A DNA stretch of 59,116 bases, from contig JAUMXZ010000001.1 of assembly GCA_030528905.1 (NCBI GenBank), positions 1 to 59,116 of the forward strand, written 5' to 3'. The DNA comes from Clostridia bacterium (GTDB lineage: Bacteria > Bacillota > Clostridia > Oscillospirales > Acutalibacteraceae). Position numbers and translations under genes: made by a program. The notes under the pieces were generated by a model. That model was not told the DNA's origin and made no database searches. It saw only the letters and a program-made list of their open reading frames with translations. Below, in pieces: positions 16,729-20,521 of the stretch (the first letter of the stretch is position 1; each line of letters starts with the position of its first letter).

Positions 16729-16998
16729 ATGAAAGCGGTTATTACTGTAATAGGAAAAGATATAGTGGGCATACTTGCAAAGGTTTCAACTATGTGTGCT
16801 AAGTATAATATAAATATTATGGATGTAACACAGTCAGTGCTTCAGGACTTGTTTGCAATGATAATGCTCGTTGATATGAAAACCTGTACAATAGATTTTA
16901 AAGAATTTGTTGATAAGATGGCACTACTCGGAGAAGATGAAAATTTAAAGATTCACGTTATGCACGAAGATATATTTAATTCTATGCACAAGATATAA
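16729..16998 (+). CDS. ACT domain protein (UPF0237 family)
   Basis: 89-aa single ACT fold (VITVIGKDIVGILAKVS). GGAGG SD. Conserved partner gene of UPF0210. Confidence 0.8.
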   Translation: MKAVITVIGKDIVGILAKVSTMCAKYNINIMDVTQSVLQDLFAMIMLVDMKTCTIDFKEFVDKMALLGEDENLKIHVMHEDIFNSMHKI

Positions 16999-17022
16999 CT
17001 TTTACGGAGGAATTTGAAATTT

Positions 17023-18381
17023 ATGTTGAATACAGGAGATGTACTTGAAACAATAGAAATGATACAGCAGGAGCATCTGGATATAAGAACAATAACAATG
17101 GGGATCTCGCTGTTTGATTGTGCTTGTGATGATATAGACAGATTATCTTATAAAATTTATGACAAAGTCTGCCGATATGCAAAAGATTTAGTCAAGACAG
17201 GCAACGATATAGGCAAGGAATATGGAATACCGATAGTAAACAAAAGAATAGCAGTAACACCTATTGCGATGATGGCGGCATCTTGCGGAGGAAAAAATCC
17301 TGTTAAAATAGCTAAGATGCTTGATAAGGCGGCTAACGAATTGGGTGTTGACTTCATAGGCGGATATTCAGCCTTAGTGCAAAAGGGTTTTTCTCCCGGT
17401 GATTATGCTTTAATAGAGAGTATTCCGGAGGCTCTGAGCCAAACACAGCGAGTTTGCTCATCTGTAAATATAGGCTCCACAAAAACCGGTATCAATATGG
17501 ATGCTGTTGCAAAAATGGGCAAGATAATAAAGAAATCAGCAAAGCTGACACAGGATAGAAATTGTATCGGGGCTGCAAAATTAGTTGTGTTTTGCAACGC
17601 ACCGGAAGATAATCCTTTTATGGCAGGAGCTTTTCACGGAGCCGGTGAGCCGGATTGTGTAATAAATGTCGGTATATCCGGTCCGGGAGTAGTCAGCGCA
17701 GCTATAGAAAGAGCAAAAGGCTGCGATATAACACAGATAGCAGAGGTTATAAAAAAGACAGCATTCAAGATAACAAGAGCCGGACAGCTTGTAGCCAGGG
17801 AAGCCTCAAAAAGATTATGTGTGCCGTTTGGAATTATAGATTTATCATTAGCACCAACGCCTGCTGTGGGAGATTCTGTTGCACAGATAATAGAAAATAT
17901 AGGCGTGGAAAATTGCGGAGCCTGTGGTACGACGGCTATTTTAGCTCTTCTTAATGATGCGGTGAAGAAAGGCGGAACAATGGCTTCTTCACATGTTGGA
18001 GGTTTATCAGGTTCATTTATCCCGGTAAGTGAAGACAGAGGTATGATAGAAGCGGTGAAAAAAGGCTGTCTGACGCTTAACAAGTTAGAGGCAATGACAG
18101 CAGTATGTTCAGTAGGCTTAGATATGATAGTAATACCGGGTGATACAAGCAGTGATGTAATTTCAGCAATGATTGCGGACGAAGCGGCAATAGGAATGGT
18201 AAACTCAAAGACAACCGCAGTACGCGTGATACCGGCAATAGGAAAAAATGTGGGCGATGAGCTCGACTTTGGCGGTCTTTTAGGCAAAGGACCTGTTATG
18301 CCGGTAAATACAAGTTCTCCTTCAGTGTTTATAAAACGAGGAGGAAGAATCCCTGCGCCAATACACAGCTTAAAGAATTAA
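17023..18381 (+). CDS. UPF0210 (DUF711) family protein
   Basis: The N-terminus [33 protein letters not shown] and a ~450-aa length are typical of UPF0210. The ATG 17023 choice over TTG 17014 rests mainly on this family N-terminus, not on SD spacing: GGAGG at 17006-17010 is only 3 nt from the TTG but a long 12 nt from the ATG. Confidence 0.8.
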
Positions 18382-18389
18382 AGACAAAA

Positions 18390-18433
18390 GCCATACCGAA
18401 TGAGTTTTCAAACGGTATGGCATCTTTATTTTT
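18390..18433 (+). terminator. Rho-independent terminator ending the polC-his-UPF0210 transcription unit
   Basis: GCCATACCG (18390-18398) pairs perfectly with CGGTATGGC (18413-18421). A T-rich tract, atcTTTaTTTTT, follows. Confidence 0.85.
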
Positions 18434-18524
18434 AGTTAATATGCACAAAACAAGGACAAAAATTACGGCTTATTGATAGAAAATAGAGAAAGTAAAAAAA
18501 AGTTTAAAAAAGTGAAAAAAATAC

Positions 18525-18553
18525 TTGAATTTGACGGTTATATGCTATATAAT
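18525..18553 (+). promoter_or_regulatory. Sigma-A promoter of the S10 operon
   Basis: TTGAAT (18525-18530), 17-nt spacer, TATAAT (18548-18553). An A-rich UP-like tract lies at 18491-18522. Confidence 0.75.
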
Positions 18554-18862
18554 GATGTTTGCAAGACTGCAAATGATATGCGAAGAAGCGGGAGGTTGCG
18601 GCTTTTAGTCGGTTTTTCCGTGGAGTATGTCCGATTTTAAACCGGGCGGATAAATAATGCAAAAGAAGTAAGGACTTAAACTGCGCACTAATGCGCTCTT
18701 TAGCTCTTGTGGGCTTCTTTTGCGTTAAAAACACTTATCTGACTAACTTCCCGGATTTGGCAAGTGCCTGATCCGGTTTTTATATGTATAAAAGTTTAAA
18801 CACCCGGAGCTGGGGTAAGAAAGTGTTGATACCGCTAACTAATTTTTAAGGAGGCGACGAGA
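18554..18862 (+). promoter_or_regulatory. Long structured 5' leader of rpsJ (candidate attenuator RNA)
   Basis: About 300 nt separate the promoter from the rpsJ ATG. Contents: a 10-bp perfect helix GCAAAAGAAG (18659-18668) / CTTCTTTTGC (18714-18723), an inner hairpin GCGCA-ctaa-TGCGC (18683-18696), a boxA-like CGCTCTTTA (18694-18702) and an intrinsic terminator (18751-18781). Confidence 0.6.
18751..18781 (+). terminator. Intrinsic terminator/attenuator inside the rpsJ leader
   Basis: CCGGAT-tt-GGC-aagt-GCC-tg-ATCCGG followed by TTTTT. It lies 82 nt upstream of the rpsJ start codon. Confidence 0.7.
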
Positions 18863-19174
18863 ATGGCAGTCAAAAATAAGATAAGGATAAGACTTAAGGG
18901 TTATGATCATCAAGTTGTTGATCAATCTGCTGAGAGAATAGTTCAAACAGCTAAACGTACAGGTGCTAAGGTTTCAGGTCCTGTGCCGCTGCCAACAGAA
19001 AAGCAGATTGTTACTATTCTAAGAGCTGTTCATAAATATAAAGACAGCAGAGAACAATTTGAGATGAGAACTCATAAGAGACTTATCGATGTATTAAGAC
19101 CATCAAGCAAAACTTTAGATGCTTTGATGAAACTTGACCTTCCTGCAGGCATTGAAATCGAGATTAAAGCTTAG
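18863..19174 (+). CDS. rpsJ: 30S ribosomal protein S10 (NusE)
   Basis: [10 protein letters not shown]...[16 protein letters not shown]...HKRLIDV. AAGGAGG SD. Confidence 0.98.
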
Positions 19175-19247: not shown

Positions 19248-19880
19248 ATGAAAAAAGGAATCATCGGTAAAAAAATCGGTATGGCTCAAATTTTTGATGA
19301 GAAGGGCAATGTAATACCGGTTACCGTTGTAGAAGCGGGACCTTGCGTGGTTTCGCAAAAGAAAACCGTCGAAACAGATGGTTACAATGCAATCCAGGTT
19401 GGCTTTGGTAATGTAAAACCACAAAGAGTCAACAAACCAATGAAGGGTCACTTTGATAAAGGTGATGTAGCTCCTAAGAAAATTCTTAAAGAGTTTCGTC
19501 TTGAAGATATCGAAAGCTATAATGTAGGCGATATCATTAAGGCAGAGATCTTCGAAGAGGGAGAAAAAGTTGATGTAATCGGCAGAAGTAAAGGTAAAGG
19601 TTATGCCGGTGTAATTAAGCGTTGGAATTTCCACAGACTTAAAGAATCTCACGGTACAGGCCCTAACGTAAGAAAAGGTGGCTCAATCGGAGCTTGTTCA
19701 GACCCATCAAGAGTATTTAAAGGTACAAAGATGAATGGACATATGGGCAGCCAAAGAGTAACAGTTCAAAATCTGCTCGTAGTTAAAGTGGATAATGAAA
19801 ATAACCTTATAGCTATCAAGGGTGCAATCCCCGGTCCAAAAGGATCAACGGTTGTTATCAAAAATTCCGTTAAGGCTTAG
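19248..19880 (+). CDS. rplC: 50S ribosomal protein L3
   Basis: [24 protein letters not shown]...[22 protein letters not shown]. Confidence 0.98.
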
Positions 19881-19897: not shown

Positions 19898-20521
19898 ATG
19901 CCTAAGTTAGATGTAATAAATATGAGTGGCTCAAAAGTCGGAGATATAGAACTTTCAGATGAGATATTTGCTGTAGAACCAAATGTCGCTGCTATGCACC
20001 AAATGGTAGTAAACTATCTTGCAAGTCAGCGTCAGGGCACACAATCAGCACTCACCCGTTCAGAAGTATCCGGCGGCGGAAGAAAACCATGGCGTCAAAA
20101 AGGTACAGGCCATGCAAGACAAGGCTCTACTCGCGCACCACAATGGACACATGGTGGAGTTGTGTTTGCTCCAAAGCCAAGAAGCTACAGATTCAAGGTC
20201 AATAAAAAAGTAAAACGCCTTGCAATGAAATCAGCTTTCTCATCAAAAGTTATAGACAACGATTTAATCATTATAGATGAAATCAAAACAGATGAGTATA
20301 AAACCAAAACAATGGTAAAAATGCTTTCAGATATAAAAGCAGAGAAAAAACCACTTATCGTGCTTGACAGCGTAGATAAGAAAGTTATTAAATCTGTTTC
20401 AAATATACCAAAAGCTAAAACAACTCAAGTCAATACATTAAATGTATATGATATTATGAATGCAGATAAGCTTGTTATCACACAGGCAGCAATAAAGAAA
20501 ATTGAGGAGGTGTATGCATAA
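19898..20521 (+). CDS. rplD: 50S ribosomal protein L4
   Basis: [25 protein letters not shown] 19898 follows AAAGGAGGA; the ORF-track GTG 19880 overlaps the SD itself. Confidence 0.97.

Follow-up and report, generated by a model that had tools for sequence, protein, structure and literature searches.

An S10 operon leader in Clostridia joins the known RF03136 motif to a conserved, probably regulatory terminator

About a dozen ribosomal proteins are encoded in the S10 operon, which stands at the head of the S10-spc-alpha cluster of roughly 15 kb. In E. coli, the operon's leader combines L4-mediated, NusA-dependent transcription attenuation with translational repression, L4 and NusA stabilising the polymerase that pauses at the attenuator hairpin. 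The L4 leader is given as restricted to Gammaproteobacteria (PMC7247131, Table S1; PMC3616713). An S10 leader of Firmicutes was predicted by Yao et al. 2007 (PMC1913097) and was extended with many Clostridial examples by Eckert & Weinberg 2020, from whom the S10-Clostridia motif RF03136 also comes and who called it fundamentally the same as the Firmicutes leader (PMC7247131). The name 'S10' refers to the first gene of the operon and not to a determined ligand (supplementary Table S1, note f), and the published alignment ends at the GGCGA that closes the second hairpin, P2 (PMC7247131). A candidate structured RNA, an rpsJ motif named RLC-47-1, has been described in the S10 5' UTR of Peptostreptococcaceae (PMC11109978). 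For ribosomal-protein-dependent attenuation in Firmicutes, an experimentally shown precedent is the infC-rpmI-rplT leader of B. subtilis (RF00558), for which PMC1865079 gives a leader of roughly 200 nt that is bound by L20, with control of transcription attenuation. Finally, the rimP-leader contains a premature terminator with a conserved GGGc...gCCC (Naville & Gautheret 2010, PMC2965389).

We analysed the region upstream of rpsJ in a stretch of 59,116 nt from a Clostridia bacterium, hereafter the window. We found that this leader is an ordinary member of the known candidate RNA family RF03136, with the same two hairpins at the same position upstream of rpsJ and with the strings GCGAnGAAGCGGGAGGUUGC, UUUCCGUGGAGUAUGUCC and GGCG common to the family and the window. 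The family model lacks a variable hairpin, a terminator, a ACACCCGG box and a Shine-Dalgarno hairpin, which make up two thirds of the leader (Table 1). With the E. coli S10 leader it has in common the operon controlled and a terminator shortly before rpsJ, and feedback by an operon-encoded ribosomal protein, the logic of the E. coli leader, is what we propose here. A scan of positions 18380-18900 with Rfam, listing matches with E up to 10, returned nothing relevant to the E. coli-type leader, to which Table S1 of PMC7247131 gives no Rfam accession. The infC-rpmI-rplT leader is an unrelated RNA with another ligand and another operon, and no Rfam match to RF00558 was found here. RLC-47-1, which was compared by description only, is like the window's leader a candidate structured RNA in a Clostridia S10 5' UTR; a Peptostreptococcaceae locus in our set (L049) has RF03136 and a ACACACCCGG box without a terminator. 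The rimP-leader resembles the window in having a premature terminator with an unusually conserved stem, a pattern that suggests recognition by a protein or alternative pairing, but it belongs to another operon, has another motif and has no upstream aptamer-like domain.

Table 1. Features of the S10 leader and its surroundings, in window coordinates.
Feature	Position	Strand	Description
A-rich tract	18490-18524		Just 5' of the -35 box
Sigma-70-type promoter	18525-18553	+	-35 TTGAAT 18525-18530, 17-nt spacer, -10 TATAAT 18548-18553
5'-terminal small hairpin, UGCAAGACUGCA	18560 to about 18571-18573	+	Predicted fold
RF03136, S10-Clostridia ribosomal protein leader	18574-18653	+	46.4 bits (gathering score 35.1)
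RF03136 P1, lower stem	18588-18595 with 18614-18621		
RF03136 P1, tip	18599-18603 with 18607-18611		
RF03136 P2	18629-18633 with 18643-18647		GUCCG with CGGGC
Proposed antiterminator, 5' strand	18642-18652	+	CCGGG 18642-18646 with CCCGG 18750-18754; GCGGAU 18647-18652 with 18736-18741
Variable spacer hairpin	18655-18727	+	-29.3 kcal/mol, z = -5.2, 0/200 shuffles as good
10-bp helix of the spacer hairpin	18659-18668 with 18714-18723		GCAAAAGAAG, exact reverse complement of CTTCTTTTGC
Inner hairpin within the 10-bp helix	18683-18696		GCGCA 18683-18687, TGCGC 18692-18696
Long-range outer helix	18730-18827	+	AACACUU + UCU (18730-18740) with AGA + AAGUGUU (18818-18827), predicted
Intrinsic-terminator-like hairpin and U5	18751-18781	+	Hairpin 18751-18776, U5 18777-18781
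Conserved ACACCCGG box	18800-18807	+	23 nt downstream of the U-tract's first base
Weak hairpin CGCU/GGCG, partly covering the Shine-Dalgarno	18833-18856	+	Predicted fold
Shine-Dalgarno	18848-18854		AAGGAGG
rpsJ (S10), first gene of the operon	18863-19174	+	Pfam PF00338, 129.5 bits

The assignment of the region to the S10 operon, made in a first-pass annotation from the sequence alone, agrees with the RF03136 match and with the Pfam gene order that follows the leader (S10, L3, L4, L23, L2, S19, L22, S3). Reading the sequence, we also found the promoter, the 10-bp helix with its GCGCA/TGCGC hairpin and the hairpin with its U5 tract where that annotation had placed them. The rpsJ ATG lies 82 nt past the U-run of the terminator and 310 nt past the -10 box. 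The hexamers of the promoter have 10 of 12 matches in a promoter scan, which gave 2 sites in the kilobase where shuffles lead one to expect 2.5, so that the hexamers alone are not significant. The placement of the promoter upstream of rpsJ nevertheless gains from the relatives: in about 30 of 42 of them, the best promoter-like site has a -10 box that ends 16-23 nt 5' of the RF03136 start, as against 20 nt in the window. By this comparison of sites the promoter position is conserved among relatives, and it supports, but does not prove, a transcription start near 18560. The small hairpin predicted at this 5' end contains GACUGC, which is kept at the 5' end of the leaders of relatives (as GUGACUGCAC or ACGACUGCGAC) and, in relatives L001-L066, in a hairpin some 20 nt upstream of where RF03136 begins. 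The GACUGC hairpin thus sits between the predicted start and RF03136, outside the Rfam model; in Bacilli, GACUGCGAUGAAG itself opens the motif.

The RF03136 match is full-length (model positions 1-81 of 81), with E = 2.8e-06 in the scan of the whole window and 2.4e-08 in the local scan, and is the single match above gathering score in the whole-window scan with Rfam 15. It ends 210 nt 5' of the rpsJ ATG, on the same strand, in comparison with about 175-200 nt in relatives. The first-pass annotation had seen no described ribosomal leader in this RNA, and the above-gathering match takes away that novelty: the claim of a new RNA cannot stand. What the leader offers is that, in gut Oscillospiraceae and Ruminococcaceae, a known motif is coupled to a terminator and, downstream, a box, both of them conserved. 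The 10-bp helix and the terminator both lie downstream of the published 81-nt motif, and the conserved terminator module is not covered by the Rfam model. Within the motif, P1 and a 5-bp P2 are present in both the minimum-free-energy and the centroid folds. The Rfam alignment places two non-standard pairs in the window's inner P2, and the shifted 5-bp P2 (GUCCG/CGGGC) fits better. The folding energy of the RF03136 domain alone is not unusual (z = -0.4). Matches to mir-578 and NrrF in the leader are far below their gathering scores and were put down to chance. Open reading frames of 55 and 76 aa that overlap the leader were treated as spurious, the region being a conserved RNA motif.

To compare leaders, we searched with the S10 protein and retrieved 80 rpsJ loci from representative genomes, the best relatives being Ruminococcus, Oscillospiraceae and Acutalibacteraceae genomes with up to 88% identity. 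RF03136 matches were found in 50 of the 60 related rpsJ loci scanned. Scanning metagenomes for a 16-mer conserved in the motif gave 120 further loci, and 152 unique leaders were analysed after removal of duplicates. Cultivated relatives in the set with the window's architecture include Merdimmobilis hominis NSJ-153 (L018), Harryflintia acetispora DSM 100433 (L038) and Acetivibrio straminisolvens (L022). The window sequence itself is held by nine sequencing runs, all gut, faecal or unlabelled runs of metagenome type (contigs) and none of them an RNA run.

The terminator hairpin, CCGGAUU.GGC-AAGU-GCC.GAUCCGG, has a 7-bp and a 3-bp stretch separated by a U-U internal loop, with AAGU as its loop, and folds with -15.9 kcal/mol (z = -4.5, 0/200 shuffles as good). 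A simple consensus terminator scan made no call at this position because it disallows the 1x1 internal loop of the stem. The sites that it did report in the leader, 18599-18611 and 18702-18715, are sub-hairpins of P1 and of the spacer hairpin and are unlikely terminators. Among the 152 leaders, 114 bear the box, 45-110 nt 5' of the start codon. For these we asked for a hairpin with an energy of at most -6 kcal/mol that abuts a U-run of 3-7, the run beginning 20-24 nt 5' of the box. This test was passed by 107 of the 114 leaders, and by 33% of the controls made by shuffling and 21% of those made by shifting. The 107 hairpins have a mean energy of -13.4 kcal/mol and 83 distinct sequences. The box follows the U-run at a fixed register, the distance from the first U being 22 or 23 nt in 84 of the 107 leaders. 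An ungapped test, in which the 8 nt before the U-run had to find a complement of at least 7/8 bases within the preceding 52 nt, was passed by 68% of the leaders and by 22% when the arms were shuffled.

The hairpin that had been read from one sequence is therefore kept in relatives together with its U-run (107/114), and it is kept with compensatory changes. An alignment of the whole platform with MAFFT misaligned the terminator 5' arms, and covariation was therefore counted on an alignment of the terminators only, comprising 48 distinct sequences. Standard pairs fill 82.4% of the stem cells (65.1% in shuffles), double-sided changes number 72 (32.8 in shuffles) and the covariation score is 0.374 (0.149 in shuffles), and for each of these measures none of 500 shuffles was as high. 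The count of pairs with any double-sided change (7/9) was equalled by 146 of the 500 shuffles. Slid registers of the stem all scored lower than the tested one, which is somewhat favoured in that the 5' ends were set from the fold of each sequence. From these comparisons, the terminator is real and conserved in related gut Clostridia, and it is probably regulatory. Since a hairpin with a U-run is conserved with compensatory changes between the promoter and rpsJ, attenuation is a reasonable reading. In the predicted fold of the window, the U-tract also pairs with the A-run that follows it (UUUUUAU/AUAAAAG), giving a small second hairpin at 18777-18794.

The segment between P2 and the terminator has another character. 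It varies from 39 to 231 nt, with about 50% pairwise identity, among 76 distinct relatives, and its folding has a median z of -1.7, with values below -2 in 32 of the 76; by these predicted folds it is usually, not always, strongly structured. The 10-bp helix that the first-pass annotation had singled out is present and folds beyond chance, but it is not conserved: on comparison with relatives, it is the window's version of a lineage-variable spacer hairpin and not a conserved element. This bears on the idea that Nus factors control the operon (S10 being NusE, which acts with NusB) through the boxA-like GCGCUCUUUAGC at 18692-18703, which resembles the E. coli boxA GCUCUUUA. The window has an 8-nt match to boxA, and a putative boxA has been noted upstream of rpsJ in three gammaproteobacterial genera (PMC5725501), but the match falls inside the non-conserved spacer hairpin, GCTCTTTA occurs in only one of the 152 related leaders and the variant TTCTTTGA in none of them. 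With its motif not conserved, we consider this idea effectively refuted and give it next to no credit.

Behind the terminator, the columns of the ACACCCGG box are invariant or nearly so among relatives, and the variants in the 114 box-bearing leaders are ACACCCGG, ACACACGG and ACGCACGG. In the window, possible partner strands of the box are a local GGGGU (18812-18816) and GUGUU (18823-18827). In some Clostridial leaders the box pairs with a downstream GGUGU and in others with an upstream GGGUG, in different registers. RNAalifold found no consensus structure from the U-run to the box because the side and register of the partner differ among leaders, which suggests that what is conserved is the duplex of the box and not its connectivity. 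The Bacilli offer a parallel. Their RF03136 has an insertion of roughly 20-35 nt at the tip of P1, and in Halalkalibacter this insertion, of 31 nt, reads ACACACCCGG...GGGUGU. As the insertion carries a helix of the box type, we infer from the sequences that the ACACC/GGUGU helix behind the terminator in the window's lineage is the element that caps P1 in Bacilli. The box could possibly serve as a second operator, for translational control. At a larger scale, the outer helix is predicted to enclose both the terminator and the box (region 18727-18830, -29.8 kcal/mol, z = -3.1), and 42 of 68 relatives have a predicted equivalent with 5 bp or more.

The region past the U-run bears on two further explanations. 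According to the first, the operon is attenuated through a leader peptide that would start at the AUG at 18783 and run for 21 codons to a stop that overlaps the Shine-Dalgarno. An AUG does occur 7-8 nt after the U-run start in 56 of 94 leaders, but 25 of the 94 have none there, the frames range from 2 to more than 60 codons with unrelated peptides, the AUG at 18783 is not preceded by a Shine-Dalgarno, and the frame begins past the terminator. As the frame is not conserved among the 94 leaders, the peptide is refuted and its probability is negligible. Relatives show a conserved nAAUG 6-9 nt after the U-run start, which is not a conserved start codon. According to the second explanation, the terminator is a constitutive leaky element, e.g., a transcription brake or an RNA-stabilising hairpin, and feedback acts on translation only. 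This would fit the compact RF03136 of Bacilli, which abuts the Shine-Dalgarno, stops 13-18 nt short of the start codon and is not accompanied by a terminator. It would also fit the partly paired Shine-Dalgarno of the window, where relatives have GCCCGCC...AAGGAGGCGA with conserved GCCCGCC and GGAGGCGA columns. Yet the hairpin over the Shine-Dalgarno is weak (z = -0.46 for 18782-18865), and the fixed register of the terminator, its conserved stem and its complementarity to P2 would be hard to explain in a passive element. We judge the leaky element to be quite improbable.

The complementarity to P2 is the observation that could connect the known motif with the terminator. The CCGGG that ends in the P2 3' arm matches the terminator 5' arm CCCGG as its exact complement, and P2 and the proposed antiterminator share bases 18643-18646. 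When the nascent transcript of the window is cut before the terminator 3' arm, the antiterminator becomes the minimum-free-energy fold, with P2 dissolved and the variable hairpin enclosed by the new pairing; when the 3' arm and the U-run are added, the terminator state is more stable by 6.3 kcal/mol. The same truncated folds of 81 distinct leaders of the window's type contain the antiterminator in 58 cases and P2 in 15, with a median gain of 6.8 kcal/mol for the terminator state. The P2 3' segment forms its best duplex with the terminator 5' arm in 54 of 78 leaders, on average at -11.0 kcal/mol, in comparison with -8.5 kcal/mol at the best alternative site. Among leaders of the window's type that bear the terminator, the C that gives rise to CCGGG does not vary. 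It sits in the P2 loop; a U takes its place in the terminator-less L029, L046 and L049, and Bacilli have other sequences at this position. In L024, three compensatory changes occur together: C becomes U in P2, G becomes A in the terminator 5' arm and C becomes U in the terminator 3' arm. This is the one lineage with compensatory evidence: the antiterminator bases are nearly invariant, and covariation therefore cannot confirm the pairing between P2 and the terminator. Moreover, CCGG is palindromic, so that some complementarity of this kind is automatic. On the modelled folds, it is plausible that the P2 3' arm and the terminator 5' arm form an antiterminator.

We thus think it rather probable, from sequence comparison and folding, that the leader is a ribosomal-protein-dependent transcription attenuator composed of the RF03136 domain and a lineage-specific expression platform. 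The platform would consist of the variable hairpin, the terminator at 18751-18781 and the helix of the ACACCCGG box 22-23 nt behind the tail. An excess of an operon-encoded ribosomal protein would bind the RF03136 domain and lock P2; with P2 locked, the terminator 5' arm would be left free, the terminator would form and transcription would stop near 18781. When the protein is scarce, the CCGGG of the P2 3' arm would instead pair with the CCCGG of the terminator arm around the variable hairpin, allowing read-through into rpsJ. The box helix and the partly paired Shine-Dalgarno might add a second, translational level. By analogy, such a shutdown by excess protein fits the usual logic of ribosomal leaders. 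Two further points count against the switch: P2 forms first during transcription and would need to be displaced, and neither the box nor its fixed spacing from the U-run is explained by it. The model gives the search for the ligand something definite to measure, namely termination at the U-run, and definite targets for mutation, the CCGGG in P2 and the CCCGG in the terminator arm.

The pairing of P2 with the terminator is not found in every lineage. A second group of leaders, in which the box reads ACGCACGG and lies exactly 24 nt after the U-run start, has a P2 that ends in AAUCGGGCGG, often with a long insertion, and a terminator ACCGGC...GCCGG ahead of UUUGUUUU. When the arms were inspected, no complementarity between P2 and the terminator was seen in this group, and the pairing is also absent in L031 and L057. 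These leaders therefore make termination assisted by a protein and NusA a serious rival, in which no RNA switch would operate, as in the leader of the E. coli S10 type, and a protein would read the CCGG base of the stem and perhaps the ACACCCGG box. The stem base (CCGG/CCGG), unlike the freely varying inner pairs, is conserved in sequence, its pairs being CG, CG, GC and GC in 34-41 of the 48 rows, which is unusual for intrinsic terminators and recalls the GGGc...gCCC of the rimP leader (PMC2965389). In addition, the terminator 5' arm repeats the box ACACCCGG in L006, L011 and L012. On the other hand, the box lies downstream of the termination point, too late to influence the decision through the nascent RNA, and most leaders of the window's type are predicted to form the antiterminator pairing. 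We regard protein-assisted termination without a switch as unlikely on the whole, if less so than a leaky element.

A more specific form of the attenuator can be put forward tentatively. The Oscillospiraceae-type leader may be a two-module regulator beyond what the Rfam model captures, in which the 5' domain gates the conserved terminator by competition between P2 and the antiterminator, and in which the box helix, the P1 tip of Bacilli, has been relocated to 22-23 nt behind the terminator tail, where it may be a second protein-binding operator. If true, this would mean that a protein-binding helix was relocated within a leader during evolution.

The members of the second leader group include L082, L087, L103, L108, L111, L118, L130, L134, L137, L155, L163, L180 and L184, among others. 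Four further leaders, from Intestinimonas- or Pseudoflavonifractor-like genomes (L041, L061, L064 and L066), combine RF03136 with a terminator that lies about 110-225 nt 5' of rpsJ, and carry GAUACGCACGA in place of the ACACCCGG box.

Directly upstream of the S10 operon, Pfam identifies a small ACT-domain gene followed by a DUF711 gene (together 16729-18381, the latter at 17014-18381). A hairpin, CCATACCG...CGGTATGG with a T-rich tail, lies directly 3' of the DUF711 gene at 18393-18433 and is overlain on the minus strand by the weak NrrF match. This hairpin is probably the terminator of the DUF711 gene, and the S10 leader would therefore belong to a separate transcription unit. Within the operon, L4 has a weak Pfam match to NTPase_1, which is probably spurious. 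The rplD (L4) start can be read in two ways: the listed open reading frame begins at a GTG at 19880, directly after the rplC stop, and the ATG at 19898 (MPKLDV...) gives a more typical L4 N-terminus.
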